Shown: positions 1,177 through 38,784 of the stretch, piece by piece
Layout of the letters: every line of letters starts with the position of its first letter
How positions within the stretch are numbered: position 1 is the stretch's first letter
Origin: a virus
Direction: 5' to 3' (one strand)
Length of the DNA: 64,000 nt
IMG/VR virus record: IMGVR_UViG_3300043774_001004
Span: 25,842-89,841 of that record
Made by a program: the position numbers and the translations under genes
The notes under the pieces: model-generated
Seen by the model: the letters and a program-made list of their open reading frames with translations, nothing else
Told to the model about the DNA's origin: nothing
The model's database searches: none

Positions 1177-1665
1177 ATGAATAAGAGAATCATTTTAGTC
1201 GGTAAAGCTGGATCAGGCAAAGACTTCATGAGAAGGAAGTTAGAATCTAGAAATTTCAAATACGCAACAAGTTATACAACAAGACCTGCAAGAGAAGGTG
1301 AAGTAGAAGGTAAAGACTATTTCTTTATCTCTGAAGAAAAGGCTCAATGGATGATAGAAAATGGTGAGTTCTTTGAGTATGTCCCATTTAATGGTTGGAT
1401 CTATGGTACTACATTAAGTCAATGGAATCAAGAAAATGACGAAAGCGTTTTTATTATGACTCCAACTGGTCTTTCACATGTCGGTCCAGATGACAGAAAA
1501 GAATGCTTTGTAATTTTCGTTGATATCGATAAAGAGGTTAGAAAAGAAAGACTTCTCAACAGAAATATGCCAGGTGATAGCCTTGAACGAAGAATTGAGG
1601 CTGACGAATTGGACTTTGAAGATTTTTCTAATTATGATGTTAGAATTACCAATCCTGATTTCTGA
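1177..1665 (+). CDS. gmk: Guanylate kinase
   Basis: P-loop GKAGSGKD; signature TSYTTRPAREGEVEGKDYFF; YGT. Confidence 0.9.
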   Translation: MNKRIILVGKAGSGKDFMRRKLESRNFKYATSYTTRPAREGEVEGKDYFFISEEKAQWMIENGEFFEYVPFNGWIYGTTLSQWNQENDESVFIMTPTGLSHVGPDDRKECFVIFVDIDKEVRKERLLNRNMPGDSLERRIEADELDFEDFSNYDVRITNPDF

Positions 1666-1690
1666 AACTAAACAAGTAATCTTAATATAA
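1664..1690 (+). promoter_or_regulatory. Putative phage promoter GAAAC-N17-TATAA
   Basis: GAAAC 1664-1668, TATAA 1686-1690. Confidence 0.55.
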
Positions 1691-1706
1691 AAATAAAACA
1701 AATAAA

Positions 1707-2300
1707 ATGGCAAGAAAAGAAAAGATCGAAGCTGCTGAAGTAAATGTTCCGCAGGATGAAACAGTAACACTTAGCATGATTAAAGCAACTGACGCAAAAG
1801 AAATGTCAGATGATGTTTTGAAAGCTGAGCAACAACGCTATAGTGATATGGCAGACAAGTTTGGTCAGTTGACTAAAACTAAAAAGTATGGCATCAAGTT
1901 TGATGATATCAAGGATGCTAAAACGCTTCTTAAGCACTTTGAGAAAAATGTAAAATGGACACATGCTGAAGCTCCACTTTTTGTTGCAGCATATCAAAAG
2001 CTTAAGGATGCAATTACTGAAGGCCTAAGCGAGCAAAATGAATTGTTGATCGATGGTCCATCACTTAATGGCATTTATCAAATCCTTTTGAAAACTGAAG
2101 GTGTTGGTTTCTTTGCAGTTCGTGATTATATGTCACTTCTTACAATGACAGGTGAAGGTATCACCAATGCAATGCGTAACATGATCGAAGATCAAAACAC
2201 ATTGAAGAATATCCATACAAATCTTAGTACACTTGATGATGAAGTTAATGCTCGTCACATGGGTATCGAAGTAGAATCTGTAGAAGAAACACAAAAATAG
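1707..2300 (+). CDS. Hypothetical helical protein
   Basis: 197-aa ORF, no recognised motif. Confidence 0.6.
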   Translation: MARKEKIEAAEVNVPQDETVTLSMIKATDAKEMSDDVLKAEQQRYSDMADKFGQLTKTKKYGIKFDDIKDAKTLLKHFEKNVKWTHAEAPLFVAAYQKLKDAITEGLSEQNELLIDGPSLNGIYQILLKTEGVGFFAVRDYMSLLTMTGEGITNAMRNMIEDQNTLKNIHTNLSTLDDEVNARHMGIEVESVEETQK

Positions 2301-2308
2301 TAATCTAG

Positions 2309-2812
2309 ATGATATTCTTTATTGAAGGCTTGTCAGCCACAGGTAAAACAACTTTAATCAATAAGTATCTAGAAAAATACCCCAATAACGGCGCCATCCG
2401 ATTCAAAGGATCTGGCGCCGTTAACATTGGGATGCAATCGAGATGGCAAGAATATAATTTCTGGATGCATAACATTATTGAAAGAATGGACCAGCTTAAT
2501 GACTACAAAGTCCCATTTCTTTGGGATCGTGGCATTACTGATATCATTTATAGTGAAGATGAGAATTATGCAACAGAACTTTTAAGAGTTGTCAAATCAC
2601 ATATCCGTAAAGCTGTTATCTATATTGATGCTCCACCTTCAACATTAAACAGAAGAATGACTAAAGAAGGTAGTGATATGTCCGAACATGGTCGTAAATA
2701 TGAGCATGTAATTAAAAGTTTTGACATATTAAGAATTACTCTTTCAGGTGATTGTTTGATTACAGAAGAACATGTAGATATGCTTCATGAATATATTATG
2801 TCGAAGATATGA
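2309..2812 (+). CDS. P-loop nucleoside-monophosphate kinase (dTMP-kinase-like)
   Basis: N-terminal IEGLSATGKTT, WDRG motif, lid-like TLNRRM. Confidence 0.75.
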   Translation: MIFFIEGLSATGKTTLINKYLEKYPNNGAIRFKGSGAVNIGMQSRWQEYNFWMHNIIERMDQLNDYKVPFLWDRGITDIIYSEDENYATELLRVVKSHIRKAVIYIDAPPSTLNRRMTKEGSDMSEHGRKYEHVIKSFDILRITLSGDCLITEEHVDMLHEYIMSKI

Positions 2813-4026
2813 GTTTAAAGAAAGACTATAAAGAAATAATTAACAGAATCAATTCACTCAGAAGAATTGAATCATCAGGCGATCTAAATAAAAAGATTAA
2901 GAGAGTCGCAGTTATTCTTACTGGTTCACGTTCTGGTTCTAGTTTAATGAAAGCTGTAGTCTCAAAAAGTAATGATGTTGCATATCTTTCAGGTGAAGAA
3001 GAGCCATTTTTTATCTTAACAGGTAACGGCTTTCCATGGTCTAGTGACAGCGATGGCTTTAACACTATTAAGAATAAGCAAAAGCTTTTAGATAATCTAT
3101 TCGATGATCTAGGTATAAATGATAAGGTATTCAATCTCACGAAGACCCTACATGACTGGCGTAATCGTATACTGTTGCAATTTCCAGATGTCGATTCTGA
3201 TGTGATTGATTATCAGTTACCTAAGTATGTGTCTAAGTTTTATACAGAAGGCACAGACTATACTGAAGCAACACAAAAGATGTTGTTTACTACTTTCAAA
3301 GAAAGGGCAGGACTGTATGATATCTGTGACGGCAGCTATGATTTTATGCTTCAGAAATTCAAAATTGAAGAACCTCCTTTTGTAATCCCACCACAGCGTA
3401 GAAAATTTACAGAATCCGACATTGAAGACAAAGTCCTTGTATTCAAGACACCTCAAGACTGTTACAGAATAGGTATCTTTGAAGAGCTTTTTCCAAATGC
3501 GGATATCAAGTACATACATTTAACAAGAGGCTTTGCCCAAACAATCAATGGGCTTATGGATGGCTGGTTATCAGATACTGGCTTTTTTGCCCATGATGTT
3601 TCTATCATCAATGAGAAATTAAACATTGAAGGCTACTCTGATGTTAAACCTTATGGTAGCAAATGGTGGAAGTTTGACCTGCCTCCAAATTGGAAAGATT
3701 ATAAAGATGCCCCACTTCATGAGGTATGTTTAAATCAATGGCATTCTGCACATACGCATATCTTAAATTCAGGTAAGCAGGTATTGCATATTAGATTTGA
3801 GGATTTCTTAACTGATCCAAACACAACAGCAAATAAGATTACAGATTATCTTGGCATCAATCCTATCAAGATCGATCATATACCTGTAGTAATGGCAACA
3901 GAAAAGCCTGAACAGTTCAGATGGATGAAAAGAAGTGCGCTAATAAATGATCTTTCACAGAGAAAAGAGGTAAAAGAACTAATGGATGCGTTAAAATATA
4001 AAATGGAACCAGAGTTATGGGTGTAA
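2809..4026 (+). CDS. PAPS-dependent sulfotransferase (Sulfotransfer_3-like)
   Basis: 5'-PSB-like TGSRSGSSL; FPNADIKYIHLTR (3'-PB); IRFEDFLTDP...ITDYLGI. Confidence 0.85.
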   Translation: MSLKKDYKEIINRINSLRRIESSGDLNKKIKRVAVILTGSRSGSSLMKAVVSKSNDVAYLSGEEEPFFILTGNGFPWSSDSDGFNTIKNKQKLLDNLFDDLGINDKVFNLTKTLHDWRNRILLQFPDVDSDVIDYQLPKYVSKFYTEGTDYTEATQKMLFTTFKERAGLYDICDGSYDFMLQKFKIEEPPFVIPPQRRKFTESDIEDKVLVFKTPQDCYRIGIFEELFPNADIKYIHLTRGFAQTINGLMDGWLSDTGFFAHDVSIINEKLNIEGYSDVKPYGSKWWKFDLPPNWKDYKDAPLHEVCLNQWHSAHTHILNSGKQVLHIRFEDFLTDPNTTANKITDYLGINPIKIDHIPVVMATEKPEQFRWMKRSALINDLSQRKEVKELMDALKYKMEPELWV

Positions 4027-4997
4027 AAGAAACTAAAAATAAAAGATCTAAGAAAACAAAGGAACAAGAGTCTATTGATAAAGGCGTTGAGCTTTTACAT
4101 GATGTTCCTACTCAACCTCAGCCTGAAACTGAGGAAGAGCCAAATTATTTTAAATACGGATATACCAACGAGTACGATACACTCGTTGCAGCTATGATTC
4201 ATATTCCAAGAAGGAATGAGATTGAGTATTTCGATCCTAAAAAGGCCATGTACAAAAGCATTCCGAATTATGAAAAGCTTTTAGAAGAGGTTGATCAGTA
4301 CAGAACTCTTTTAATGAATCTGGGTATTCAGGTTTACGATGATGTGTATTTCCATGATACAGATTATAACCCATATCCTAACCAGATCTTTATGCGAGAT
4401 CTGGCAGTTATCACGCCAAATGCAATCATCTTAGCCAATCCTAAATACGATATTAGAAAAGGTGAAGAGAGAAACCTATTGGCAACAATGAGAAAATGGG
4501 GTTACTTTGGTCGTGTAATTGAACTTTCAAAAAATACGACAATGGAAGGTGCCGACTTTTTCTGGATATCTGAAAGTGAAGTCCTGGTATCAGTTGGTAA
4601 TAGAACTAGTGAAGATTTTGTAACAACATTTAAGTTCTTTTATCCAAATCTTAAAGTAACAGTTGTTGAAGCTGCTGCTGAAGGTATTCCTCAACATATC
4701 CTAGGTGGCGCACATATTGTTGATAAAGATACAATCATTCAACGCAAATCGATTGTAAAGCATGACCTTGGCTTCAAGAATACAATTTTACTTGAAGAAA
4801 CAGATGAGGTTGTTAATGGCTACGCAATGAATATCCTGACAGTAGGTCCAATGGAAATCATTATGCCATCTGGCAATCCGGAAACCAAGGCAATTTATGA
4901 ATCACATGGTATTAAAGTCCATGAAAGTCCAGCAAAGGAAATCGGTAAAATGGGAGGAGCCTTTGCCTGTATGACACTTCCAATGAAAAGAGGATAA
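4017..4997 (+). CDS. Amidinotransferase / arginine deiminase / DDAH (pentein) family enzyme
   Basis: NEYDTL..AMIHIP, PNQIFMRD, RKGE, EGAD, C-terminal KMGGAFACMTLP with catalytic Cys. Confidence 0.85.
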   Translation: MGVKETKNKRSKKTKEQESIDKGVELLHDVPTQPQPETEEEPNYFKYGYTNEYDTLVAAMIHIPRRNEIEYFDPKKAMYKSIPNYEKLLEEVDQYRTLLMNLGIQVYDDVYFHDTDYNPYPNQIFMRDLAVITPNAIILANPKYDIRKGEERNLLATMRKWGYFGRVIELSKNTTMEGADFFWISESEVLVSVGNRTSEDFVTTFKFFYPNLKVTVVEAAAEGIPQHILGGAHIVDKDTIIQRKSIVKHDLGFKNTILLEETDEVVNGYAMNILTVGPMEIIMPSGNPETKAIYESHGIKVHESPAKEIGKMGGAFACMTLPMKRG

Positions 4998-4999
4998 TT

Positions 5000-5908
5000 A
5001 TGAAAATGAGTTTAAAGTACAATGAAGTTGAAAGTGCTGCAGCAGCATATCAATGGTTTTGTAAATTGATAAATGAAGAAGGTGATTATGTAACCAGCAG
5101 AGGTGAACAGACCAAAGAGGTTTTGAATGCTGGCGTTCTGATCAAGAATATCAGAGATCGTGTTATACCAATCTCTAACTTCAATGAACGTTTCATACTT
5201 CAAGAAACATACGATATCTTAAATGAAAATCAACCCAGGGTTATGCACTCTAAAGAGATGCTAGAAAAAACCATGGGTAATAGCAATAATATCATGTTCT
5301 TTGGTAATGAGATGCGTCAGGCTTTTAGCAGATGGTCGCTTCTTCGTATCAAAACTCTTTTTGAAAAAGATAAGTTCACAAGAAAGGCAATACTAGATTT
5401 AGGTAATAGAAGACCGATTGTGCATGCTCCATGTATGATTTACGCACATTTCATTATCAGAGACAATGCACTACACATGTTGGCTGAAACTAGGGGCACA
5501 GAAGTCTCCATGGGTTTTGTCAATGACATATATTTTTATACGATTATTCAAGAGCTGATGTACAATTGGCTTCTAGAAACCTATCCAGATCTTGAACTTG
5601 GAACTTTCTTATACAAAACTACATCACTTCATTATTTTACAAACAAGGATGGTGGCCCACTTTGGTCACAAGAGTTTATAGAATCTGATAGATCTGGTTA
5701 TATCATAACAGATTTGAAATATTGTGATTATATAGCCGAGATGGGAGTTTTATACCATTATGTCGATGCCTATATGAAAGCAGGTGAAAGAGAAGATGTC
5801 GATGCGGGTATAATTACAACATACAGAGACTTAAAGAATCCCGATTTTAATAATTTTAAGCAAGCTTTTTTCTATAATTGGGCAAAAATACTAACAACAG
5901 ATGAGTGA
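5000..5908 (+). CDS. Divergent thymidylate-synthase-fold protein (dCMP-type)
   Basis: SRGEQTKE, DKFTRKA, APC (catalytic Cys), IRDNAL, RGTEVSMGFVND, SLHYF. Confidence 0.75.
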   Translation: MKMSLKYNEVESAAAAYQWFCKLINEEGDYVTSRGEQTKEVLNAGVLIKNIRDRVIPISNFNERFILQETYDILNENQPRVMHSKEMLEKTMGNSNNIMFFGNEMRQAFSRWSLLRIKTLFEKDKFTRKAILDLGNRRPIVHAPCMIYAHFIIRDNALHMLAETRGTEVSMGFVNDIYFYTIIQELMYNWLLETYPDLELGTFLYKTTSLHYFTNKDGGPLWSQEFIESDRSGYIITDLKYCDYIAEMGVLYHYVDAYMKAGEREDVDAGIITTYRDLKNPDFNNFKQAFFYNWAKILTTDE

Positions 5909-6737
5909 TAAAGGCGGCAATACCAGTGCTTACAAAATTTACCATCAAGGTAAAATGAAATACTTTATCAAATCATTTCAGACAAATGGTTTTGATATCA
6001 GTAGCTTTACTTTTCAAAATTATCTCTACAATAATTTCAAATCAGATCTGAAGATCTGTAAGCCTATTAAGATAGTTTCTGAAAAGTCAAATGAGGTTCA
6101 AATCTATTATGAATATGTCAAGCCTATTGATTGGGAATTGACTGCAGACCGTGTTTCTTTCCTCGGTAAATCATTAGCAGAATTGCATAACTTCTGTTAC
6201 TTAAAGAAAAATGAAATTTCATTACCTGATAAAGTTGCAGTTGTTGCAATGGGTAAATGGCAAGATGTTGAAGATTCATTTGATAAAGAACTTGCAGTCA
6301 GTATCAGAAAGGCAATCTATGATAACTTAAAGCCTTATGATAGAGATCAGATACGCATTCCTCTTCATCGTGACTTTAAGTTACATAACATTATGTTTGA
6401 CGGTGAAAATCTTAATCTGATTGATTTTGATTTTGCAGCTATTGATAATATCGGCATAGAAATAATGTCGTTTATCATAGATTTTTACTATGAAACCAGG
6501 GATCAAAGTTTAGTATCTGATTTTATCAAAGCCTATAAACAAGAATCAAATCTTGACATAAATTGGACATCGGTACTAAATGACTATCTAGTCTATATGT
6601 GCGTTAATACATTTCCTTTCTATATGAGAGGTAGAATTGGAGAACATAACTTCAAGAACCTGCTTACTGAAAGAAATGGCAAACTAAATTTTACATACAT
6701 CAATAAAGATTTCTTATATGAGAGTTTACAGAGGTGA
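5901..6737 (+). CDS. Aminoglycoside-phosphotransferase / choline-kinase-like phosphotransferase
   Basis: LAELH, Brenner motif HRDFKLHN, LIDFD. Confidence 0.8.
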   Translation: MSDKGGNTSAYKIYHQGKMKYFIKSFQTNGFDISSFTFQNYLYNNFKSDLKICKPIKIVSEKSNEVQIYYEYVKPIDWELTADRVSFLGKSLAELHNFCYLKKNEISLPDKVAVVAMGKWQDVEDSFDKELAVSIRKAIYDNLKPYDRDQIRIPLHRDFKLHNIMFDGENLNLIDFDFAAIDNIGIEIMSFIIDFYYETRDQSLVSDFIKAYKQESNLDINWTSVLNDYLVYMCVNTFPFYMRGRIGEHNFKNLLTERNGKLNFTYINKDFLYESLQR

Positions 6738-7590
6738 AACATTTGCAGAAGTTTATAGAAAATCACTTTGGGATCTAATTAACGATCCTGAGCATTCAGT
6801 GTCGCCACGTGGCATGAAAATCAATGAAGTGGTAAACGCAGTTCATGTCGTTGAAGATCCATCTTCTTGTCTTTACTATAATGAAAGACGTAGCAGCCAA
6901 TTGAAATATATTGCAGCAGAAACAGTTTATTACTTTGCTGGTCGTAGAGATCTTGGTTTTATCAAGAAGTTTGCCTCTTTCTGGGAACAGATTGCCAATA
7001 TTGACGCAACTGTCAATTCAGCTTATGGTAATCTAATCTTTACTGAGGTGAATAAGGCAGGTGTTACACAATGGGATTGGGCGTTTCAGTCTCTAGTTAA
7101 AGATAAAGATACTAGACAGGCTATTCTCCTGTTTAATAAGCCAGACTATCAATACTTTGGTAACAAAGACGTGATCTGTACCCTTAATGGTATCTTCAAC
7201 ATCAGAGATAATAAATTGAATTTCACAATTCAGATGCGTTCAAATGATGCCATTCTTGGAACTCCAACTGATTTTGCATTCTTCTGTTTATTACAAATGC
7301 AGATGCTAAAGCTTCTGAAAGAGAAAGCGTATCCTGAATTAGAACTGGGTACATTTACCCATATTGCAAATTCATATCACGTCTATGAAAGGCACTTTGG
7401 TCTAATACAAGACATGCTGTCTGGTTATTTTGAGCCATCTTCATTCGAGCCAATCAACGAAAACTTTATCAATTATGAAGGTAAACCTACTGCAGAATTT
7501 GAAAAGTTAACACATGCTGTTGAATATGGTACATCATACGAAACAGAAGATAAATTATTTAATTGGATATATGAAAAAGCAAGAATCTAA
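6718..7590 (+). CDS. dCMP hydroxymethylase-like thymidylate-synthase-fold enzyme (T4 gp42 type)
   Basis: VNSAYG, DKDTRQA, DVICT, MRSNDAILGTPTD (Asp at specificity position), SYHVYERHF. Confidence 0.85.
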   Translation: MRVYRGETFAEVYRKSLWDLINDPEHSVSPRGMKINEVVNAVHVVEDPSSCLYYNERRSSQLKYIAAETVYYFAGRRDLGFIKKFASFWEQIANIDATVNSAYGNLIFTEVNKAGVTQWDWAFQSLVKDKDTRQAILLFNKPDYQYFGNKDVICTLNGIFNIRDNKLNFTIQMRSNDAILGTPTDFAFFCLLQMQMLKLLKEKAYPELELGTFTHIANSYHVYERHFGLIQDMLSGYFEPSSFEPINENFINYEGKPTAEFEKLTHAVEYGTSYETEDKLFNWIYEKARI

Positions 7591-8089
7591 GTTCTTTGTT
7601 ACCAGTGATACTTTTTTCGGAAGGGTCAATAAAGCCGCTGAAAGGGGCTTTGCAACCGTTGAGGAAATGGATGAGGCCCTTGTCGAAAACTGGAACGCAA
7701 AAGTCGGCAAGGACGATGTTGTCGTACATCTGGGTAATTTTGCATGGACGCCAAATCATGTTGAGGAAATACTAGAAAGACTAAATGGCACCATAATCTT
7801 CTTGCTCGGCGACAGAGATCAGGCTCTCGCAAAAGTTGCTGAAGTTAACGAAGATATAAAATTACAGCAAGAGCAAATCCTAACACATGATAATGTCATA
7901 CTGTCTCACTGGCCACTTGAAATATGGCCAGGCAAAGATAAAGACTTCTATCACTTTCATGGCCACGCTGAACCTGGATTAAGAACAGATATCAAATTGA
8001 TGAAAAGGGTTAACGCATGCTGTGACCATTGGTCTTTAGCGCCGATAGAAATAAAAGACACTATTGATCTTCTAAGTGATTTTATGTAA
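7571..8089 (+). CDS. Calcineurin-like phosphoesterase with degenerate metal ligands
   Basis: SDTFFG, LGNF, GDRD, LSHWP, HGH against canonical SDxHFG, GDF, GNHD; start chosen at ATG 7571. Confidence 0.7.
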   Translation: MKKQESKFFVTSDTFFGRVNKAAERGFATVEEMDEALVENWNAKVGKDDVVVHLGNFAWTPNHVEEILERLNGTIIFLLGDRDQALAKVAEVNEDIKLQQEQILTHDNVILSHWPLEIWPGKDKDFYHFHGHAEPGLRTDIKLMKRVNACCDHWSLAPIEIKDTIDLLSDFM

Positions 8090-8154
8090 AGTTTTCAGCA
8101 AAAGACTATATGTTTATGTTTTTTGTTGTTATATTTACACTATACATAAAATAT

Positions 8155-8790
8155 ATGACAGAAACTACAAAAAATCTGATGCTTGACTTTCAAGCAACTA
8201 AAACCCACTCATCATTTACTAAACTTTATAAGAAGCTTGCGCCAAGCCTTAAAAACTACATCAGAGGTATTGTAAAAGACCAAGATGTAACTGAAGATCT
8301 TCTGGCTAATACGTTTGCCAAAATCTATACCAAGATCGACCAATATGACCCACAATGGCAAGCTTCTACTTGGTCATATACTATCGCCCATCGTGAATGC
8401 CTACGTTGGATTAAAAAAGAAAGAAATACCCGAGTTTCGCTTTCATACTTTAATGAAAACGGCTCAGATGTAGTTTCAGATGATGATGTTGTATCAATCA
8501 GCAACAGCAATAATAGTAAAATTGAAGTTGAAAATTACAAAACTGAAGATCAATGGCTTGATGAAGATCGTCAGTTAAACGAACAGTTTGATTTTGCAAT
8601 TGAGTCAATACAAAATCTGAAACCAATGTATCGTGAAATCCTGACAGACAACCTGATCAAAGGCATGAAGTATCGTGAAATTGCCGATAAACATAAATTA
8701 CCTTTGCAGACTATTAAAAACCGCATTCGCCGTGCCAAGCAACTGGTAGCTGAAAGCTTAACAGGTGAATTTGGTGAAATCGATATATAA
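8155..8790 (+). CDS. ECF-type sigma-70 family RNA polymerase sigma factor
   Basis: Region 2 EDLLANTFAKIY..STWSYTIA; region 4 GMKYREIADKHKLPLQTIKNRIRRAK. Confidence 0.88.
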   Translation: MTETTKNLMLDFQATKTHSSFTKLYKKLAPSLKNYIRGIVKDQDVTEDLLANTFAKIYTKIDQYDPQWQASTWSYTIAHRECLRWIKKERNTRVSLSYFNENGSDVVSDDDVVSISNSNNSKIEVENYKTEDQWLDEDRQLNEQFDFAIESIQNLKPMYREILTDNLIKGMKYREIADKHKLPLQTIKNRIRRAKQLVAESLTGEFGEIDI

Positions 8791-11312: not shown

Positions 11313-12226
11313 TGTTTACACCCTTGACTATGATACCCTTTGTTGGAAGCTGGATTAAAAACCCATTTAGTAAAAATAACATAACAGGAACACTTGCAAT
11401 AGCTTTAGGCATTTTCATACTTCTGAATATGAAAAGCTGTAAAAAGAATGCCGAGCTAAAAGCTGAAATGGAGTTCCAAAAAAATGTTGCAACCAATAAT
11501 TACGACGCATTAAATGGCGAAGTTAAAACACTTAAGACCAAGAATGGCGAATTAGAGTATTCAAAGACAATACTTTATACAGACATGGAAGGTCTTAAGA
11601 ACCTGAATAGTAACTTATATGAAGAGTTAAAAAAGGAGAAAGGCAAAGTTAAAGTCATAACAGATGTCGAAACTGTAATTGAGTATGTGCCAGTAACTAT
11701 ACCAAATACTGTTACATCTTTTGGCTCAGGTAAATATGGCTTATCATTTACTTCAACCTATAGAGATTCTGGTCTTTACTCTCAAATAGAAGGTATCAGT
11801 AAGTTCAATATTAAAGATAACGTTGTTTCTCCTGATTCTACTTCAATAACTAAGAACTCTCTTAAGATAGATGTAATTTATGGTATGAGAGAGATCGATG
11901 ATAAAATTGAAGTATTTGCCAGAAGTGCATCACCACTGGTAAGTTTCAATGAAATACAGGGCGCTTATATCATGAATAAAGGTAACACTCTTTTACCGGA
12001 TGATAAGCCTGTTTCAAAACCAATTAAGTGGTTGTTAGGACCGCAGATTGGTTATAACTATAACTGGCCTGCTGAAAGGTCTAATGTACAAATACTTGCA
12101 AATCTACAAAGAAGAGCGGGTAAATTTACTCTAGGCTTCCAAACAGGTATAGTAAGAGGCATAGAAAGCCAGCAAACGGATTTGAGATTAGGTCTCAGAT
12201 TCCAATATAATTTATTTCAATGGTAA
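11312..12226 (+). CDS. Membrane-anchored protein with coiled coil and beta-rich C-terminus
   Basis: TM segment plus KSC; ends LRLGLRFQYNLFQW. Confidence 0.5.
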   Translation: MFTPLTMIPFVGSWIKNPFSKNNITGTLAIALGIFILLNMKSCKKNAELKAEMEFQKNVATNNYDALNGEVKTLKTKNGELEYSKTILYTDMEGLKNLNSNLYEELKKEKGKVKVITDVETVIEYVPVTIPNTVTSFGSGKYGLSFTSTYRDSGLYSQIEGISKFNIKDNVVSPDSTSITKNSLKIDVIYGMREIDDKIEVFARSASPLVSFNEIQGAYIMNKGNTLLPDDKPVSKPIKWLLGPQIGYNYNWPAERSNVQILANLQRRAGKFTLGFQTGIVRGIESQQTDLRLGLRFQYNLFQW

Positions 12227-12426
12227 AACTTCTTTCATTCAAAGATTTTGTAGCAGAAGCAACTATAGGTGGTCAAATGTCACCAAACATTAGCTTTGCT
12301 CCAAATCTTGCTTTTGCCCCAATGGCTGAAAATCCTCAGCCAGACCCAGGTGAACAAGATCATTTGAATATGCGAAACAGGATGAAGAAGAAAACCCCAA
12401 AAAAGAAGAAAAATGAAGAAGGATAA
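12220..12426 (+). CDS. Small protein with CTS-like leader MVKLLSFKDFVAE
   Basis: 68-aa ORF, basic C-terminus. Confidence 0.5.
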   Translation: MVKLLSFKDFVAEATIGGQMSPNISFAPNLAFAPMAENPQPDPGEQDHLNMRNRMKKKTPKKKKNEEG

Positions 12427-13099
12427 CGTAATAAAATACGGTATAATATCAGTATTTATCAGTCTATATCTGATCGTGTCGACGATCTCTATGATACACT
12501 CGATCGATTTCTTCGGTCTGTCTAATAGTAAAAGTATGGCATTAGCATTGGCTACTGCTTTTGAAATTGGACAAGTTGCTGCACTCTGTGGTATACTTAT
12601 TTTAGATAAAACAAACAGATTTGTAATCTGGTCACTTTTCTTGCTGTTGACGTCAATGCAGATCATGAGTAATGTTTATTTCTCATATAAATATCTGGGT
12701 GACTATTCAACATGGGCTGAACTGTTTGGCCTAGGCGAAGAAGAGCCTATATTCCAAAAGAGAATGTTGGCAATTATTTCAGGCGGTATATTACCAATAG
12801 TTGCTCTAGGTTTTATCAAATCTCTTGTTGATTATTTAAGACCTGCAGGTGAAGAGGAAGTAAAAGTAGATGCAGAGCCAAGAGAAGACAAAGTAGTTAC
12901 AATTACTGAAACTGAAGAAGAGCCTGAGATCCTAAGTGACAAATTTGATTCGACTATAAATATATCAGATGAGCTTGCTCCTGTTAAAGACGAGACTGTG
13001 AAAGAAGTCATGACTAGGAAAGTTGAAATGCCTAGAACACCTGGCCAATATAGAGATCCTATAACAGGCGGTGGAGCTATAAAAAACAAGGGAAAATAA
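12413..13099 (+). CDS. Multi-pass membrane protein (about 4 TM) with acidic tail
   Basis: Hydrophobic segments in the first 140 aa. Confidence 0.6.
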   Translation: MKKDNVIKYGIISVFISLYLIVSTISMIHSIDFFGLSNSKSMALALATAFEIGQVAALCGILILDKTNRFVIWSLFLLLTSMQIMSNVYFSYKYLGDYSTWAELFGLGEEEPIFQKRMLAIISGGILPIVALGFIKSLVDYLRPAGEEEVKVDAEPREDKVVTITETEEEPEILSDKFDSTINISDELAPVKDETVKEVMTRKVEMPRTPGQYRDPITGGGAIKNKGK

Positions 13100-13108
13100 T
13101 AAGAATGA

Positions 13109-13618
13109 ATGGCAATATGTAATGCTATTTCAGAATGTGGTTCAATATATGCTTCAGTTGAATGTTTAGCTGCAGTAGTACAGGGTGAGAGCTACCACTA
13201 TGAAATTCAACTCACTAATGCTGACGGTACCCCGTTAGATTTAACACTTTACGATGCTATCGTAATGAAATTATATGGTGAAGCCGTAGACATTACTTAT
13301 GAGAGTCTTTATTATGGTTACTGGGGATGGCCATTTCCTTTGAATAGCGAAATTCAGAATGAGCTTTATGTCTTACAAACAACTGAAGTGCCTTCAGGCA
13401 CTACTGTGCCGATTATAGTTAATGAAGGCATGATAGCATTTGATCTAGACTATGAGCTGACCAGATATTTCAATACTGGTAAATTATACGCAGAAATTAA
13501 ACTTAAACAACAAAATTCAGGCACTGGAGGATTCCTTGAGCAGCCTGTTTATACAACAATAACTTGCTTAAAAATAGGAAATGTGAAAGGTTCTAAAACC
13601 AGAGATTTCTTCTTCTAA
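13109..13618 (+). CDS. Virion adaptor-like beta protein (BppU-N-like)
   Basis: QGESY..IQLTNADGTPLDLT..GKLYAEIK pattern; directly upstream of the fibre gene. Confidence 0.45.
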   Translation: MAICNAISECGSIYASVECLAAVVQGESYHYEIQLTNADGTPLDLTLYDAIVMKLYGEAVDITYESLYYGYWGWPFPLNSEIQNELYVLQTTEVPSGTTVPIIVNEGMIAFDLDYELTRYFNTGKLYAEIKLKQQNSGTGGFLEQPVYTTITCLKIGNVKGSKTRDFFF

Positions 13619-13633
13619 ACAAAGAGACTAGGA

Positions 13634-16600
13634 ATGCCGATACCTTTAAATGAGCCACCACAGAGGATAACGAATGAACCGCCTACAGGGGTCATTAAGT
13701 TAACCAGAGAGCTTCAATTACTGAAGCCTGTGCTCACGTCTGATGGTGTCTTTACTGATAGAATTACTCTTAACAATACATTTCTTGTTCTTGACTGGAA
13801 TAACTGGCCTGAACTTGAATACGACGTCGTCGATGATCTTTATCAAATTAGAATAGGGGCATCAGGCACTAGTGGTACTGGTGGAATAGGAGCAGCTATC
13901 ACAATTTTAGACGAGGGTAATCCTGTTACAACTAATGTCAGCTCAATCAATTTTGTAGGTGATATAATTACAGCACAGTCCCTAGATCCTCTCGATCCAA
14001 CTGCAGTTACTGTAACTGTTACTACTCCTGCCCAAACCGAATTTTATTCATGTTCACCATGGCAGATTTTAAGTACAAACAATACTCCGGCACTTCTTTC
14101 TACAAATAACGGCCGTGCAAATCTTAACGATAATACACCGCAATTTGTCAACACTCTATATTTACATGTAGATGACTTTAACGGTACAGATCAGGCTACA
14201 TGGATAGATTCATGGCAGGACAGTGGAGCATATGGCTATATTAGTTTAACTGGTATTACAACTGGCGCATACCTAAATGGTTATGTCACTGGTACTTTCC
14301 CAGGCACTAACACAAGAGAGATATACATAAATGTACTTTCTTATAGTTCAACTGATTTTATAAATGGTGAAAAACTAGTTGTTTGTTTTACACAAAACGG
14401 TGCAAATGGTACATCTGGTTCAAGTGGTACATCAGGAACTAGCGGAGCAACATACGGCACCAGTGGCTCATCTGGTACTAGAGGCACTAGTGGTACCAGC
14501 GGTAAAGGTACATCTGGCTCATCAGGTTCATCTGGCTCATCGGGTTCAAGTGGTACTATAGGTACTTCAGGTACGTCTGGTACTACATTTGGATCTAGTG
14601 GTTTAGACGGTACAGCAGGTACAAGCGGTACTACTGGTATAGATGGTTCAAGCGGTACATCTGGTCAAAATGGTACCAGCGGATCATCCGGATCCTCAGG
14701 TTCATCAGGAACCAGCGGTGTTACAGGTTCATCAGGAACCAGCGGTGTTACAGGTTCATCAGGAACCAGCGGTGTTAATGGAACAAGTGGTATAGACGGT
14801 TCTAGTGGAACCAGTGGAGCTAATGGCACTAGAGGTACAAGTGGTACAAGTGGCAATACAGGTTCTAGTGGAACTAGTGGAGCTAATGGCACTAGAGGTA
14901 CAAGCGGTTTATCAGGAACGAGCGGTAATGATGGTTTAAATGGTTTACCGGGTACTTCAGGAACAAGTGGTTCAAGTGGCACTAGAGGGACATCTGGATT
15001 ATCAGGTTCAAATGGAACCAGTGGTGTAACAGGTTCGTCAGGAACAAGTGGTGTTAATGGTTCTTCAGGAACAAGTGGTGCCAATGGCACAAGTGGTTCA
15101 AGCGGCACTAGAGGAACATCTGGATCTTCAGGTTCATCGGGAACAAGTGGTGTAACAGGTTCATCAGGAACCAGTGGTGCCAATGGCTCATCAGGAACCA
15201 GTGGTGCCAATGGCTCATCAGGAACCAGTGGTGCCAATGGCACTAGAGGCTCATCTGGATCTTCAGGTTCATCAGGAACAAGTGGTAATACAGGTTCATC
15301 AGGAACAAGCGGTAATAATGGCTCAAATGGTACTAGAGGTTCAAGTGGCTCAAGCGGTACTAGTGGTGTAGGTACAAGTGGTACTTCAGGTAATAATGGC
15401 TCAAATGGTACTAGAGGCTCATCTGGCTCAAGTGGTACATCAGGTCCTGCAGGTTCTTCAGGTACAAGCGGTGCTGATGGTAATAATGGCTCAAATGGTA
15501 CTAGAGGTTCAAGTGGCTCAAGCGGTACTAGTGGTGTAGGTACAAGTGGTACTTCAGGTAATAATGGCTCAAATGGTACTAGAGGCTCATCTGGGTCAAG
15601 TGGTACATCAGGTCCTGCAGGTTCAAGCGGTACAAGCGGTGCTGATGGTAATAATGGCTCAAATGGTACTAGAGGTTCAAGTGGCTCAAGCGGTACTTCA
15701 GGTAATGATGGTTTAAATGGTACATCTGGTAGTAGCGGTTCGTCTGGAACTAGAGGTTCTTCAGGTACATCTGGTAGTAGCGGTTCGTCTGGCTCATCTG
15801 GCTCATCTGGCTCATCTGGTTCTTCAGGCACTTCAGGTACTAGAGGTACTTCAGGTACATCTGGACAAGACGGAGCAGCTGCACCGGGTTGCTATGAGTA
15901 TTTCTTAAAACTTAACGGTGCCACTGGAGGAAGCCCTTCAGCTCTGACTCCAGGTGAGGCATATCAAAACGTAGCAGCTGCTGCATCCATTACGGAATTT
16001 GCTATATACGAAATTGATGCTAACTCTCTAGATATTTCTTCTTTTCTAAATACTATAACAGCAGGTTGTACAATTACAGTAACTGGTCAGACAAGTGGAG
16101 CAACTCTTACTGCAACCATTGGTTCAGTAAACATCATATCAGGTACAATATATCGTTTTACAGGTTTAACTGTTATTGCATCTAGTGGTACTTTTATAAC
16201 AGCGAATGTCGGTACAGAATTAGCATGGGTTTGTTTCTCATGTGCCGGTACAAGCGGTAATAGCGGTACTTCAGGTACAAGTGCTGTAGGTACTTCGGGC
16301 ACATCAGGAGCTAATGGTCTTTCTTTAGTTACTACAACGACTGGAGGAGGTGTAGTAGAAGTTAGCCCAGGTTGTTTTCAAAATACGGGTGCTGCAGGTT
16401 TTGGTAACTATGTCTATAGCGACCAGGCCTACACAAATGCATATATTTCAGTTACTATATCAAATACTGGAGTATATGCAACAGGCTTAAGTACTAATCA
16501 AATACCCGTAGTTACATCACCTCCAGTAGCAGGTAATTATGACTATTGGATCTTCTTTGGTGCTGGAGGTACTGGTACAGCTTATGGCCCAGGTGGTGTT

Positions 16601-17959
16601 GTGTTAGCTAATTTTATAACACCTGGTTTCTTTTCAGCCGGTGATATTATAACAATCGTCTGGGATGGCTCACTTGCAACATATTATCAAAATGGTGTTG
16701 TAATAGCTACCACTACATTACCGCCTACAGGAGGAAACCCTCTATACGGTTCAACTGTTTTGAGCTCAACTGGTGACCAAGTATGTGACTTTATATTTGG
16801 ACCAGTCGGACAAGGAGGTACTGGTACATCCGGTACTTCAGGCACAACAGGTCCTACAGGTACATCTGGTACTTCAGGAAACAATGGTACATCTGGTACA
16901 AGTGGAGCTAATGGTACAAGCGGTACTTCAGGTTCAAATGGCACTGCAGGTACTTCAGGTTCTTCATCAATATGCCCATGTATCTGTGCAGAATGGGTTA
17001 TTAAACCTACAACAAATCCTGCAGCCGGTCAAGGAGTTCTAAATCCTACATTAGTTGCTACAGGTATTACAAGCATCAATCTACACAATACTGACGCTAA
17101 TTCTATAAACCAGGCGGCTTGGTTTGCTACATGGACCGGAGGCGGTAATTGGATAATGGTTGGTCAGTCAAGTGGAGCTACTGCAAGTGGCTTTACAACT
17201 AGTGTTAATACATCGCCTGGTGGTTTTACTGGCGTGTCACTCGGTGTTACAGTTGTTAGCGGTTCTGGAACTTTTACAGCAAATGAAACTATAACATTCT
17301 GCTTTGATCCAACAGGAGGTGGAGGAACAGGTACTTCAGGTACATCTGGAACTAGCCCCGGAGGAGGTGGCGGTACATCTGGTACTTCAGGATCATCTGG
17401 AACCAGAGGCACATCAGGTGTAAATGGAGCAACAGGTCCTGCAGGTACATCAGGAACATCAGGTGCCGGAGGAGGAAAAGCTATAACGCCAATAGCAGAA
17501 AGTTCATGTCAAATTACAGACAATAGTACAATTTACGTAGGCGACTCGAAGGCAGGATGGGCAGGCCCCGGCTGGGATGTTCAGCGTACAGGAGGCTTGA
17601 CGATCAGTATTAACAGTGCATGGTGTTTAATTAAAATACCAACAGAATTTACCGGCGGTGTTGATGCGTTTAAACTATGTGCTTCAGGTTATTGTGCTTC
17701 ATGTGACGATTCTGACAATATCGGCGCAGCCGTATGGATTGTAAGTTGTGCAGATCTTGAAGGTGCTACAACTGATATTGATCTTGTACTCTGGGACAAT
17801 TTTAGTACTAAGTATTATAGAAACGGAACTTTTTGTCTTACCGGATCAGATAAAGCCCCTAAGACAATTCCAGCATGTGATATGCTTCTTATAGGTTTTT
17901 ATTCTACTGGTGGTACATCCGATACCGTTAATATAACCTGGCGATTAGACGAGGTATAA
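13634..17959 (+). CDS. Collagen-like (Gly-Ser/Thr-Ser) virion fibre protein with repeated globular domains
   Basis: Long runs of G-X-Y triplets (GTS/GSS/GTR), interrupted by Cys-bracketed beta domains. Confidence 0.75.
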   Translation: MPIPLNEPPQRITNEPPTGVIKLTRELQLLKPVLTSDGVFTDRITLNNTFLVLDWNNWPELEYDVVDDLYQIRIGASGTSGTGGIGAAITILDEGNPVTTNVSSINFVGDIITAQSLDPLDPTAVTVTVTTPAQTEFYSCSPWQILSTNNTPALLSTNNGRANLNDNTPQFVNTLYLHVDDFNGTDQATWIDSWQDSGAYGYISLTGITTGAYLNGYVTGTFPGTNTREIYINVLSYSSTDFINGEKLVVCFTQNGANGTSGSSGTSGTSGATYGTSGSSGTRGTSGTSGKGTSGSSGSSGSSGSSGTIGTSGTSGTTFGSSGLDGTAGTSGTTGIDGSSGTSGQNGTSGSSGSSGSSGTSGVTGSSGTSGVTGSSGTSGVNGTSGIDGSSGTSGANGTRGTSGTSGNTGSSGTSGANGTRGTSGLSGTSGNDGLNGLPGTSGTSGSSGTRGTSGLSGSNGTSGVTGSSGTSGVNGSSGTSGANGTSGSSGTRGTSGSSGSSGTSGVTGSSGTSGANGSSGTSGANGSSGTSGANGTRGSSGSSGSSGTSGNTGSSGTSGNNGSNGTRGSSGSSGTSGVGTSGTSGNNGSNGTRGSSGSSGTSGPAGSSGTSGADGNNGSNGTRGSSGSSGTSGVGTSGTSGNNGSNGTRGSSGSSGTSGPAGSSGTSGADGNNGSNGTRGSSGSSGTSGNDGLNGTSGSSGSSGTRGSSGTSGSSGSSGSSGSSGSSGSSGTSGTRGTSGTSGQDGAAAPGCYEYFLKLNGATGGSPSALTPGEAYQNVAAAASITEFAIYEIDANSLDISSFLNTITAGCTITVTGQTSGATLTATIGSVNIISGTIYRFTGLTVIASSGTFITANVGTELAWVCFSCAGTSGNSGTSGTSAVGTSGTSGANGLSLVTTTTGGGVVEVSPGCFQNTGAAGFGNYVYSDQAYTNAYISVTISNTGVYATGLSTNQIPVVTSPPVAGNYDYWIFFGAGGTGTAYGPGGVVLANFITPGFFSAGDIITIVWDGSLATYYQNGVVIATTTLPPTGGNPLYGSTVLSSTGDQVCDFIFGPVGQGGTGTSGTSGTTGPTGTSGTSGNNGTSGTSGANGTSGTSGSNGTAGTSGSSSICPCICAEWVIKPTTNPAAGQGVLNPTLVATGITSINLHNTDANSINQAAWFATWTGGGNWIMVGQSSGATASGFTTSVNTSPGGFTGVSLGVTVVSGSGTFTANETITFCFDPTGGGGTGTSGTSGTSPGGGGGTSGTSGSSGTRGTSGVNGATGPAGTSGTSGAGGGKAITPIAESSCQITDNSTIYVGDSKAGWAGPGWDVQRTGGLTISINSAWCLIKIPTEFTGGVDAFKLCASGYCASCDDSDNIGAAVWIVSCADLEGATTDIDLVLWDNFSTKYYRNGTFCLTGSDKAPKTIPACDMLLIGFYSTGGTSDTVNITWRLDEV
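15311..15690 (+). repeat. 168-bp near-perfect tandem repeat (2 copies plus a partial) within the fibre gene
   Basis: GGTAATAATGGCTCAAATGGTACTAGAGGTTCAAGTGGCTCAAGCGGTACT starts at 15311, 15479 and 15647. Confidence 0.85.
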
Positions 17960-17983
17960 ACAATTTAATAGTCAGTTGTATAA
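17957..17983 (+). promoter_or_regulatory. Putative phage promoter TAAAC-N17-TATAA at the start of the glycosylation island
   Basis: TAAAC 17957-17961, TATAA 17979-17983. Confidence 0.65.
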
Positions 17984-17996
17984 TTACTAAAAAGTA

Positions 17997-19661
17997 ATGC
18001 AGAGACTTTTAGTAATAACCCCACATCTTTCTACCGGCGGTTTACCACAATTTCTTTATAAAAAACTTACTGTACTCAAGGATCGATTTGAGATACATGT
18101 AGTAGAATGGGATGATATTACAGGTGGTGTCTTGGTCGTACAAAGAAACCTGATTAAGAATCTAGTTGGCCAAAATTTCTATACACTTGGCGCTAATAAA
18201 AATCAAATTCTAGAAATCATACAACGGGTTAAACCCAATGTCATTCACTTTGAAGAATTTCCAGAAACTTTTATAGACACTAAACTCGCCCAACGTATAT
18301 TTTCTGATAAAGGATATTACATTACCGAAACTACACATGGTACTGGCTTTAAAAAAGAGGATAAACTTTTCAAGGCTGATAAAACCATGTTTGTTTCTGA
18401 TATCAATTATACGCAATACGACTCTGTTACAAACAGGTCTGAGGTTATCAAACACCCAATAGTCAAGAACAGAGAGTCTATTTTATTAGAATTAGGTTTA
18501 GATCCAGATTATTTTCATGTCTTAAATGTCGGCCTATTTACACCTGGTAAAAATCAGGCTGAGATCATTGGATATGCAAGAAGGCTAAAGGATAAAAAAA
18601 TACAATTCCATTTTGTTGGCAATCAGGCTGGTAATTTTGAAAGTTACTGGAAGCCAATAATGGATAGTCTTCCAGATAATTGTAGAGTATGGGGTGAGAG
18701 AAATGATGTCTACAGATTCTACAGCGCCATGGACCTGTTTCTGTTTACCTCTATGCTTGAGAATAGACCCCTTTCTGTGTTAGAAGCCTTAGCCTATAAT
18801 ATGCCAGTGCTGATGTACAATCTCGATAACTACGGCACCGAATTTTCAAATATCGAAGGTATAAGATTTCTGACAACATTTGAAGAAAATCTAAAAATGA
18901 TTTATCCAGATATAGAAGAAAAGGTCGAAGAACCTTTCTATACACCCTTTGTTGAAATACAAGAAACTGTAGTAGATTTGCCAGAAGGAATACCATGCAT
19001 ACCATGTAAAAATAAGGTTACAGCAATGCATATCTTGACTGATATTGACACTCCTCGTGAAATTAGATCAATGCAGTCTTTGACAAAACTAAAAGATAGA
19101 AAAATCAACTATATTCCTGTAGTCAGTAAAAGATATACTGAATTACCACCTGCTGAAACATGTCAATATCCAGAAAGGATTAGCATGGAACCTGGAGGTA
19201 AACTTACACCAGGTCACTATGGTTGTTATCTAGGTCACAGAAAGGCATTTGAAATGGGTCTAGAAACAAATAGTGACTTTTTACTTATATTTGAATGTGA
19301 TGCCGTGATAGATGTGCCAATGGCCGAGTTTATGAAAAAGCTTAACTATGCCTGCACTGTATTACAAGAAACTGATCTTTTCTGGTTTTCATTTGGTTTC
19401 CATAACAATACAAACATTATAGAAAAGAATGAAAATTATTGGATAGTTGATGGCTTCTTTGGAGCACATGCCTATCTGATACCTAAAAAATCATTCGCCG
19501 AATTTAAAGAAATGTATGAAAAGAGCAAATGGAATGTAGCAGACCTATTATTTGTAGAAAAACTAAGTCACAAGAAAGCCGGTATATTTGAAAAGCCTTT
19601 AACATTACAGGCTGCAGGTTATTCTATACTTGATAAAATTGAAACCAATGACAGACACTAG
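17997..19661 (+). CDS. Glycosyltransferase fusion: GT4-like (GT-B) plus GT25-like domain
   Basis: HLSTGG, VGLFTPGKNQ, ENRPLSVLEA; C-terminal GCYLGH..LIFECD..AHAYLI. Confidence 0.8.
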   Translation: MQRLLVITPHLSTGGLPQFLYKKLTVLKDRFEIHVVEWDDITGGVLVVQRNLIKNLVGQNFYTLGANKNQILEIIQRVKPNVIHFEEFPETFIDTKLAQRIFSDKGYYITETTHGTGFKKEDKLFKADKTMFVSDINYTQYDSVTNRSEVIKHPIVKNRESILLELGLDPDYFHVLNVGLFTPGKNQAEIIGYARRLKDKKIQFHFVGNQAGNFESYWKPIMDSLPDNCRVWGERNDVYRFYSAMDLFLFTSMLENRPLSVLEALAYNMPVLMYNLDNYGTEFSNIEGIRFLTTFEENLKMIYPDIEEKVEEPFYTPFVEIQETVVDLPEGIPCIPCKNKVTAMHILTDIDTPREIRSMQSLTKLKDRKINYIPVVSKRYTELPPAETCQYPERISMEPGGKLTPGHYGCYLGHRKAFEMGLETNSDFLLIFECDAVIDVPMAEFMKKLNYACTVLQETDLFWFSFGFHNNTNIIEKNENYWIVDGFFGAHAYLIPKKSFAEFKEMYEKSKWNVADLLFVEKLSHKKAGIFEKPLTLQAAGYSILDKIETNDRH

Positions 19662-37327: not shown

Positions 37328-37328
37328 A

Positions 37329-37928: not shown

Positions 37929-37976
37929 AGGCACCAATCTAGTTAAAGCACGAGATATATAAAAATAAAAATTACC

Positions 37977-38651: not shown

Positions 38652-38784
38652 TTTTTACATAGAGAATGGCAAGTATATTATGACAGAATCTCTACATCTG
38701 AAAAGAGGTTTCTGCTGTGGAAACAAATGCAGACACTGTCCATATATCCCACTATACCAAAGGGGTAATACTAAAACAAAATGA
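38632..38784 (+). CDS. Small Cys-rich protein (DUF5522-like)
   Basis: FYIENG..HLKRGFCCGNKCRHCPY; TTG start inferred. Confidence 0.65.
   Translation: MKEENPDFYIENGKYIMTESLHLKRGFCCGNKCRHCPYIPLYQRGNTKTK

Follow-up and report, generated by a model that had tools for sequence, protein, structure and literature searches.

It is proposed that a block of tightly coupled genes at positions 2309-8089 of a viral DNA stretch encodes a pathway for a novel, arginine-dependent hypermodification of cytosine in virion DNA. This is the assignment towards which we lean, if cautiously, and its single steps are less certain than the whole; the modified cytosine would probably be sulfated. The stretch, here called the window, comprises 64,000 nucleotides (25842-89841) of a viral contig of 89.8 kb in IMG/VR (IMGVR_UViG_3300043774_001004), from an uncultured jumbo phage of fresh water. 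The completeness rating of the contig, 42%, would put the genome at ~200 kb. Metagenomes from lakes, fresh waters and estuaries, sampled in many studies, contain DNA near-identical to that of the window, which has a GC content of ~35% and nearly all of its genes on the + strand.

Organization and conservation of the gene block

The block contains seven ORFs on the + strand, joined by overlaps of 4, 10, 8, 20 and 77 nt and one 2-nt gap. Their coordinates and their domain matches in Pfam, PHROGs and NCBIfam confirm the seven overlapping or abutting genes that an earlier note on this DNA had described at the same positions. The gene products are as follows; ST, TS1 and TS2 denote the sulfotransferase-fold enzyme and the two thymidylate synthase (TS) paralogs, and PAPS, DDAH and 5hm-dCMP stand for 3'-phosphoadenosine 5'-phosphosulfate, dimethylarginine dimethylaminohydrolase and 5-hydroxymethyl-dCMP.

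2309-2812, + strand: core gene 1, Tmk-like P-loop kinase, 167 aa (phrog_761 thymidylate kinase, 6.7e-7)
2809-4026, + strand: core gene 2, PAPS-sulfotransferase-fold enzyme (ST), 405 aa (Sulfotransfer_3)
4017-4997, + strand: core gene 3, DDAH-like pentein, 326 aa (Pfam ADI)
5000-5908, + strand: core gene 4, TS2, MilA-like thymidylate-synthase fold, 302 aa (PHROG thymidylate synthase, 2e-9)
5901-6737, + strand: core gene 5, APH/choline-kinase-fold small-molecule kinase, 278 aa (Pfam APH)
6718-7590, + strand: TS1, predicted T4-type 5hm-dCMP synthase, 290 aa (Thymidylat_synt; phrog 6e-33)
7514-8089, + strand: phosphoesterase-like protein, 191 aa (phrog_547, 2.5e-30; no Pfam match)

Among 50,697 GenBank phage records there were zero matches to the block (megablast) or to the ST and the pentein (tblastn), so the cassette is absent from the cultured phages of that collection. 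IMG/VR yielded eight further complete cassettes with the same gene order (loci L004, L005, L006, L008, L092, L094, L095 and L096) and an additional locus, L093, whose contig ends within the pentein gene. The gene order recurs in these contigs, which represent three phage lineages, at 30-92% protein identity, and the core genes are contiguous and unchanged in order at 28-90% identity; the Tmk-like kinase gene lies directly 5' of the ST gene, and the APH gene directly 3' of TS2, in every cassette compared. Because the same order recurs in the eight further contigs of three lineages, the arrangement is not due to chance. Conservation of the gene neighbourhood in related phages had been set as a test in the earlier note, and the cassette is indeed conserved in related as well as unrelated phages. 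The conserved unit is made up of the kinase, ST, pentein, TS2 and APH genes (five genes, 2309-6737), with TS1 usually adjacent, and as judged from these comparisons it is a conserved, mobile core. TS1 adjoins the core in two of the three lineages, on either side of it, and no TS1 was found on L092 and L096, core-bearing contigs of only 16-19 kb.

The nearest GenBank relative of the window is LR756500, a 462-kb uncultured huge phage in which the five-gene core is missing. LR756500 carries the phosphoesterase gene and a guanylate-kinase-like gene (gmk, a 57% ortholog of the gene at 1177-1665), and since both occur there without the core they belong to the lineage backbone. The phosphoesterase (phrog_547 type) is also present in L005 and L006. 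Although the earlier note had listed it among the genes of the operon, it stands outside the conserved unit.

Two features of cassette L008 are recorded here. Within its span (11404-16669) a nucleoside 2-deoxyribosyltransferase-like gene splits ST from the pentein, and a further 4-kb insert carries genes for a Gp23-like capsid protein and an Acb1/2H-phosphoesterase-like protein. An ATP-grasp gene (20085-21041) comes immediately after the TS1-like gene, inside this cassette, and is 37% identical to an ATP-grasp gene of the window (R2K_3 / D-Ala-D-Ala-ligase-like, 45281-46228). The latter was considered as a part of the cassette and rejected; it tracks the phage lineage (contigs G000, G002 and G004), not the cassette.

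The predicted hydroxymethylcytosine step

TS1 scores 55.4 bits against Pfam Thymidylat_synt (cut-off 24.3) and matches MilA (1e-20) and T4 gp42 (3e-19) in the PDB. For TS homologs, experimentally grounded diagnostic residues have been described (Lee et al. 2026, PMC13326640; E. coli ThyA numbering): the nucleophile is C146, dCMP specificity comes with N177D, an acidic residue at L143 accompanies hydroxymethyl products (water access), and D169N is the mark of flavin-dependent 5-hydroxy-dCMP synthases. Across TS1 and the seven orthologs compared with it, D151 (L143D), C154 (C146), the RSND motif (in which D169 is kept) and D185 (N177D) are invariant. TS1 thus carries every residue by which a 5hm-dCMP synthase is recognized in that scheme, the catalytic Cys, the acidic residue at 143, Asp 169 and Asp 177, and we predict with good confidence that it is a T4-type 5hm-dCMP synthase.

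In LR756500 a 53% TS1 ortholog is followed by a T4 beta-glucosyltransferase-like gene and then by a SIR2-family gene (L003 12298-14531). The comparison with the window looks like a natural module swap, in which the same predicted 5-hydroxymethylcytosine (hmC) synthase is combined either with glucosylation or with the five-gene core. The TS1 signature and its context support the pyrimidine, cytosine-type hypermodification pathway that the earlier note had built on a T4-gp42-like enzyme.

The sulfotransferase and its association with guanidino-group hydrolases

The product of core gene 2 scores 39.6 bits against Pfam Sulfotransfer_3 (cut-off 27). The structural neighbours of its AlphaFold2 model (pLDDT 85.5) are all PAPS sulfotransferases, namely the OLS/CurM ST, TPST1/2, Stf9 and NDST, which are tied at Z 14-15 (VIA) with 212-256 residues aligned. 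Its invariant motifs include a P-loop-like SRSGSS loop (R41-G43-S44) and an LTRG...NGLxDGW stretch (R240...N247-G248), which we take to be the PAPS-binding motifs for the 5'-phosphosulfate and the 3'-phosphate. In fold and motifs the protein is a PAPS sulfotransferase, as the earlier note had read it, and transfer activity is predicted.

Homologs of ST numbered 651. When IMG/VR was scanned with a profile, ST turned up at 18 viral loci, in two exclusive contexts and never in both. The first is the TS2+APH context (nine complete cassettes including that of the window, with the incomplete L093 as a tenth); in the second, ST accompanies an amino acid:DNA transferase (AADT, PF18724) at eight loci (L007, L097-L101, L103 and L104). 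L102 was too short for context typing. No AADT was detected by tblastn in any TS2+APH locus, and PF18724 was not found in the 89.8-kb contig of the window, which is 42% complete, a 14-genome control being silent as well. The gene row of L097 reads HMUDK_hel, 5-hydroxymethyldeoxyuridine (5-hmdU) DNA kinase (5-HMUDK), ST, AADT and an arginase-family gene, and that of L098 reads ParB_N, TET/JBP, P-loop kinase, ST, pentein and AADT. The oxygenase of L098 is of the same type as the ParB-dependent T-dioxygenases (PMC13229309). At L007, on a 188-kb contig, an adenylosuccinate-synthetase-like gene (5303-6376, possibly PurZ-type) lies 2.6 kb 5' of the AADT-ST-pentein genes, and this phage may modify purines as well.

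In every phage locus typed, a guanidino-group hydrolase is encoded beside or near ST. In L097 and L100 this partner belongs to the arginase family; it is a pentein in the window type, L007, L098, L099, L101/L103 and L104. The pairing extends to bacteria: relatives of ST with 41-47% identity occur by the hundreds in chromosomes of Oxalobacteraceae and other Burkholderiales, where an arginase-family gene flanks ST in 80 of 80 loci and a HemK/PrmA-like methyltransferase gene in 76 of them. When all cassette proteins of the window were searched against these 80 loci (tblastn), only ST matched and none of the other cassette genes was found. Pairing in phages together with pairing in all 80 bacterial loci therefore indicates that ST and the guanidino hydrolase are an old two-enzyme module, recruited by phages into pyrimidine hypermodification. 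The bacterial methyltransferase-ST-arginase trio often adjoins hybrid sensor kinases (L012-L091, e.g. L025 9297-12042).

The sulfate might be a transient leaving group on the 5-hydroxymethyl or an appended hydroxyl, the final base being derived from an amine or arginine and unsulfated. Among the tied structural neighbours of ST are activating sulfotransferases, from the curacin and the olefin synthase pathway, which install sulfate to be expelled later as a leaving group; ST is translationally coupled to a kinase in almost all cassettes, and the known phage hypermodifications are cationic or neutral (PMC5889632, PMC8989533). However, the Z scores to TPST and NDST equal those to the activating enzymes, and a kinase for activation is already present (the 5-HMUDK of L097, the P-loop kinases of L098/L099 and the APH protein of the window). 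A leaving-group role would also not explain why ST is so strictly paired with a guanidino hydrolase, even in bacteria without hydroxymethyl-pyrimidine enzymes. We regard an unsulfated end product as possible but unlikely, and keep to a base that probably retains its sulfate.

The pentein as a putative guanidino-group hydrolase

The product of core gene 3 scores 65.4 bits against Pfam ADI (cut-off 22.8). A profile built from 12 phage orthologs was compared with the PDB and matched Pseudomonas aeruginosa DDAH (PDB 1h70/3rhy) over its full length at 4e-29, arginine deiminases at ~3e-18 (partial) and ArgZ at 6e-11. The residues D128, R147, E177, D180, R196, H227 and C318 are invariant in the 12 orthologs, and the catalytic Cys, His and acidic residues align with those of DDAH. 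R147 and R196 presumably correspond to the DDAH arginines that hold the alpha-carboxylate of the substrate, and by this analogy they would point to an amino-acid-type (arginine-like) substrate. Unlike P. aeruginosa DDAH, the pentein has a Lys-rich, variable N-terminal tail preceding the core and belongs to a nucleotide-modification operon; it falls below membership of the DDAH equivalogs (52.5 bits to NF045660, cut-off 340; 50.3 bits to NF045658, cut-off 450), and its 70 homologs, all metagenomic, form a phage-only clade. The closest prediction is a DDAH-like guanidino-group hydrolase.

The pentein fold claimed in the earlier note is confirmed; its interpretation as an amidinotransferase fared worse. 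Such an enzyme would transfer the amidino group of arginine to an amine on the base and give a guanidino cytosine, possibly sulfated. The fold and the Cys-His-Asp triad are common to amidinotransferases, and the ArgG and ArgH encoded in the window would help to rebuild arginine from the ornithine/citrulline side. The profile nevertheless matches arginine:glycine amidinotransferase (AGAT) at only 4.5e-10 and partially, against the full-length 4e-29 for DDAH, and StrB1 (2.2e-7) and SxtG (5.7e-6) more weakly still; the core is DDAH-sized (~250 aa), and an ornithine carbamoyltransferase was not seen, though no search was aimed at it. Hydrolysis is favoured over amidino transfer also because arginase-family enzymes, which only hydrolyse, take the place of the pentein in other phages (L097 and L100). 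Transfer of an amidino group is accordingly judged improbable, and removal or cleavage of a guanidino group more likely than the addition of one.

TS2 and the two small kinases

The sequence of TS2 is only weakly TS-like and matches nothing but PHROG thymidylate synthase. Foldseek analysis of its predicted model (pLDDT 76) gave MilA as the best match (4e-13, TM 0.64-0.69), and the model has a MilA-like C-terminal helical extension. R34, E69, H142, C145, R165 and D176 are invariant across eight orthologs, in which the counterparts of ThyA R21, E58, C146, R166, N177 (as Asp) and H207 are kept. These proteins have an invariant His at position 143, Gly or Ser at 167, and Glu, Ala or Asp at 169, the last of which we take to be the position of the folate-binding Asp of E. 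coli ThyA. Both TS1 and TS2 carry Asp at the dCMP-specifying position (N177), in agreement with the two dCMP-type paralogs of the earlier note. With the viral TS homologs that make dTMP, 5hm-dUMP, 5hm-dCMP or 5-hydroxy-dCMP (PMC13326640), TS2 shares the fold, the catalytic Cys and N177D; it differs from them in His 143, Gly/Ser 167, the variable position 169 and the MilA-like C-terminal helices, and it matches none of the published residue signatures (positions 143, 169 and 177; methyl, hydroxymethyl and hydroxy classes). The TS2 family comprised only six representative clusters among 1.84 billion at E<=1e-30, followed by a gap and then by generic TS homologs. Sequence and model together suggest that TS2 is a rare MilA-like TS-fold enzyme of an undescribed class.

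The product of core gene 5 scores 37.5 bits against Pfam APH (cut-off 23.2), contains HRDFKLHN and IDFDF, which fit the catalytic HxDxxxxN and DFD motifs of the family, and gives weak NCBIfam matches to homoserine, thiamine and CotS kinases; a protein atlas search with it returned nothing beyond generic APH clusters. The Tmk-like kinase has further weak matches to AAA_33 and DTMP_kinase, and its P-loop (GLSxxGKTT) and WDRG motif are conserved in nine orthologs. It is a candidate kinase for the modified dCMP. A function as 5-hmdU DNA kinase was considered and rejected: with the kinases of the AADT cassettes (5-HMUDK and P-loop type) it shares only the P-loop, and the match to the L097 5-HMUDK is 12.5 bits in a six-sequence search.

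The resemblance of TS2 to MilA, the CMP hydroxymethylase of mildiomycin synthesis, raises the question whether the product is instead a free derivative of a cytosine nucleotide or nucleoside (mildiomycin- or blasticidin-like, for signalling or as a decoy) that does not enter DNA. The nucleoside 2-deoxyribosyltransferase-like gene between ST and the pentein in L008 would suit such a product, as would the close relatives of ST in bacterial chromosomes without DNA-modification genes. Yet eight other phages place ST and a guanidino hydrolase among 5-hmdU DNA kinases and AADT, enzymes that act on DNA; the core includes a nucleoside monophosphate (NMP) kinase, which is needed for dNTP synthesis, TS1 is interchangeable in context with a glucosyl-hmC system, and the unit is without other natural-product enzymes. 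A free product is thus quite unlikely. Least credible of all is plain 5-hydroxymethylcytosine with the remaining genes as unrelated auxiliary metabolic neighbours, for although auxiliary metabolic genes abound in the window (KDO, GDP-mannose, glycosyltransferases, NMNAT-like), the overlapping-frame gene order is kept across three lineages down to ~30% identity, and ST and the pentein recur in hypermodification cassettes of unrelated phages.

Proposed pathway

We propose that TS1 makes 5hm-dCMP, the hydroxymethyl group of which would then be phosphorylated by the APH-fold kinase. In the third step the Cys of TS2 would attack C6, the leaving group would be expelled, and an arginine-type nucleophile, probably arginine or a close relative, would add to the exocyclic methylene. 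TS2 and the APH kinase would in this way do at the nucleotide level what AADT and 5-hmdU DNA kinase do on DNA. Three observations underlie the proposed phosphorylation by APH and substitution by TS2 on the mononucleotide: the ST/hydrolase pair is accompanied by either TS2+APH or AADT+P-loop kinase, never by both; TS2 keeps the nucleotide-binding and nucleophile residues; and its D169 position is no longer conserved. The AADT mechanism consists of Cys addition at C6, loss of phosphate and attack of an amine on the exocyclic methylene, and was called reminiscent of thymidylate synthases (Lee et al. 2021, PMC8989533).

The DDAH-like pentein would next hydrolyse the guanidino part to leave a citrullinyl or ornithinyl side chain; if arginine were linked through N-omega, the pentein would instead generate free citrulline and a 5-aminomethyl group. 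ST would add the sulfate of PAPS, most simply to the newly exposed amine or hydroxyl, and the Tmk-like kinase would move the modified dCMP towards the triphosphate. The phage APS (adenosine 5'-phosphosulfate) kinase would supply PAPS, ArgG and ArgH would regenerate arginine from citrulline, and the likely purpose of the modification would be protection from host nucleases. A doubtful but specific version of this scheme has arginine as a recyclable nitrogen donor: TS2 or AADT would alkylate a guanidino nitrogen, the pentein would release citrulline and leave the 5-aminomethyl group, and ST would N-sulfonate the latter to 5-(N-sulfoaminomethyl)cytosine. If true, no earlier DNA base would be known that bears a sulfamate and is negatively charged.

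Candidate supply genes and genomic setting

Genes that could serve the supply of PAPS and arginine, and the features directly 5' of the block, are the following.

1106-1129, + strand: terminator-like hairpin, 10-bp stem then a T run, likely the 5' boundary of the transcription unit
1177-1665, + strand: guanylate-kinase-like NMP kinase (gmk; Pfam Guanylate_kin 3.2e-21, phrog_1815 4e-37)
1707-2300, + strand: conserved hypothetical protein, 197 aa (no family match in Pfam, PHROGs or NCBIfam)
40766-41719, + strand: APS kinase with a HAD-like C-terminal domain (Pfam APS_kinase 5.4e-73, 244.5 bits, cut-off 21.1)
47360-48607, + strand: argininosuccinate synthase ArgG (NF001770, 425.8 bits, cut-off 334)
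48604-49842, + strand: argininosuccinate lyase ArgH (TIGR00838, 309.4 bits, cut-off 279.5; 4-nt overlap with argG)

DDAH and deiminase reactions release citrulline, ArgG and ArgH turn citrulline into arginine, and PAPS is the sulfate donor. If a ~200-kb genome were modified stoichiometrically, each burst would, by a rough estimate, use up arginine and PAPS in the millions of molecules, and such a demand would give the supply genes a purpose. The APS kinase matches plant APK1 in the PDB (5.5e-61), and its C-terminal part resembles a Gordonia phage gene annotated as polynucleotide kinase; the protein may be a PAPS-making enzyme joined to a phosphatase for 3'-phosphoadenosine 5'-phosphate (PAP) or another 3'-phosphate. 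Both arg genes are seldom met in phages; for ArgG there are matches in 16 of 50,697 records, mostly tiny contigs. The APS kinase gene and the argG-argH pair are also present in G004, the related contig that includes L006; ArgG is not listed for LR756500, which is without the pentein. A 188-aa gene product beside the APS kinase (41721-42287) was considered as ATP sulfurylase and rejected, being NMN-adenylyltransferase-like. Five cassette contigs gave no match to ATP sulfurylase (PF01747), and neither MazG nor dCMP deaminase was detected in the contig of the window, which is 42% complete; these negatives are weak.

Several observations weigh against a DNA modification of the kind proposed. The chemistry, the step order, the nucleophile and the sulfate acceptor are deduced from genes of an uncultured phage. 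The model of TS2 has low confidence at about residues 81-100 and 136-144, beside the catalytic Cys, and the core without TS1 on L092 and L096 means that TS2 might act on dCMP itself. The bacterial ST trio, standing without DNA-modification genes, is more in keeping with a small molecule or a protein as substrate than with DNA. LR756500 has the APS kinase and lacks an ST of the window family, so that in this lineage the APS kinase may serve other ends, for instance the glycan genes of the window. Finally, the remaining contigs with a cassette, two complete genomes among them, lack both the APS kinase (looked for in five further contigs) and ArgG.

The gmk gene, part of the lineage backbone, is a candidate general dNMP kinase, and the 197-aa hypothetical protein is kept 5' of the kinase in L004, L005, L006 and L008. 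No + strand terminator comparable to the hairpin at 1106-1129 was found inside 1177-8089, and promoter-like sites did not exceed the shuffled expectation. A sigma-70-family factor gene (8110-8790) directly 3' of the block is kept in L003, L005 and L006. Farther downstream are genes for a 1441-aa collagen-repeat protein and, after it, large multi-domain glycosyltransferases (GT1, GT25 and GT9) and an FkbM methyltransferase (13634-23467), which may together specify a glycosylated fibre; sugar-nucleotide genes for GDP-mannose 4,6-dehydratase, KDO-8-phosphate synthase and CMP-KDO synthetase (36335-40318); and a gene for the UV-damage endonuclease UvdE (43255-44196).

Comparison with known systems and implications

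The T4 hmC pathway comprises gp42, the dNMP kinase gp1 and DNA glucosyltransferases. The window resembles it in the gp42-signature TS1 and a dedicated NMP kinase, and departs from it in having the five-gene core beside TS1 instead of a DNA glycosyltransferase. The thymidine hypermodification phages M6, ViI, PaMx11, SP10 and PhiW-14 use a dUMP hydroxymethylase, a 5-hmdU DNA kinase and AADT (PMC5889632, PMC8989533); as in the pathway proposed here, a hydroxymethyl pyrimidine is phosphorylated and then substituted by an amine or amino acid through the exocyclic methylene. Homologs of the ST and the pentein of the window occur in the thymidine-type cassettes of eight uncultured phages. In the window, AADT and 5-HMUDK are replaced by a TS-fold enzyme with the cytosine-specifying Asp and an APH-fold kinase, which suggests that a TS-fold enzyme can replace an amino acid:DNA transferase.

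For the studied thymidine cassettes no paper was found that reports a sulfotransferase or guanidino hydrolase, and in the literature searched no paper was found in which a DNA base is modified with the help of sulfation or of a guanidino hydrolase; neither PMC8989533 nor PMC13229309 contains the words sulfotransferase, arginase, deiminase or amidinotransferase. The earlier note had not recognized the modification among those described, and the literature searched holds no description of it. The phage cytosine hypermodifications found there are all sugars on 5-hydroxymethyl- or 5-hydroxycytosine, and thymine is the only base with known adducts of amino acids and polyamines. If our proposal is true, the cassette brings amine-type chemistry to cytosine and adds a PAPS sulfotransferase and a DDAH-type guanidino hydrolase, enzyme classes absent from the base-modification papers searched. 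Freshwater phages carry the ST/hydrolase pair in abundance, and it is spread over three or more types of cassette, so the new base would be widespread. It could bear on the evasion of restriction and CRISPR and on how well sequencing captures such phages, and the cassettes could provide new DNA-modifying enzymes.

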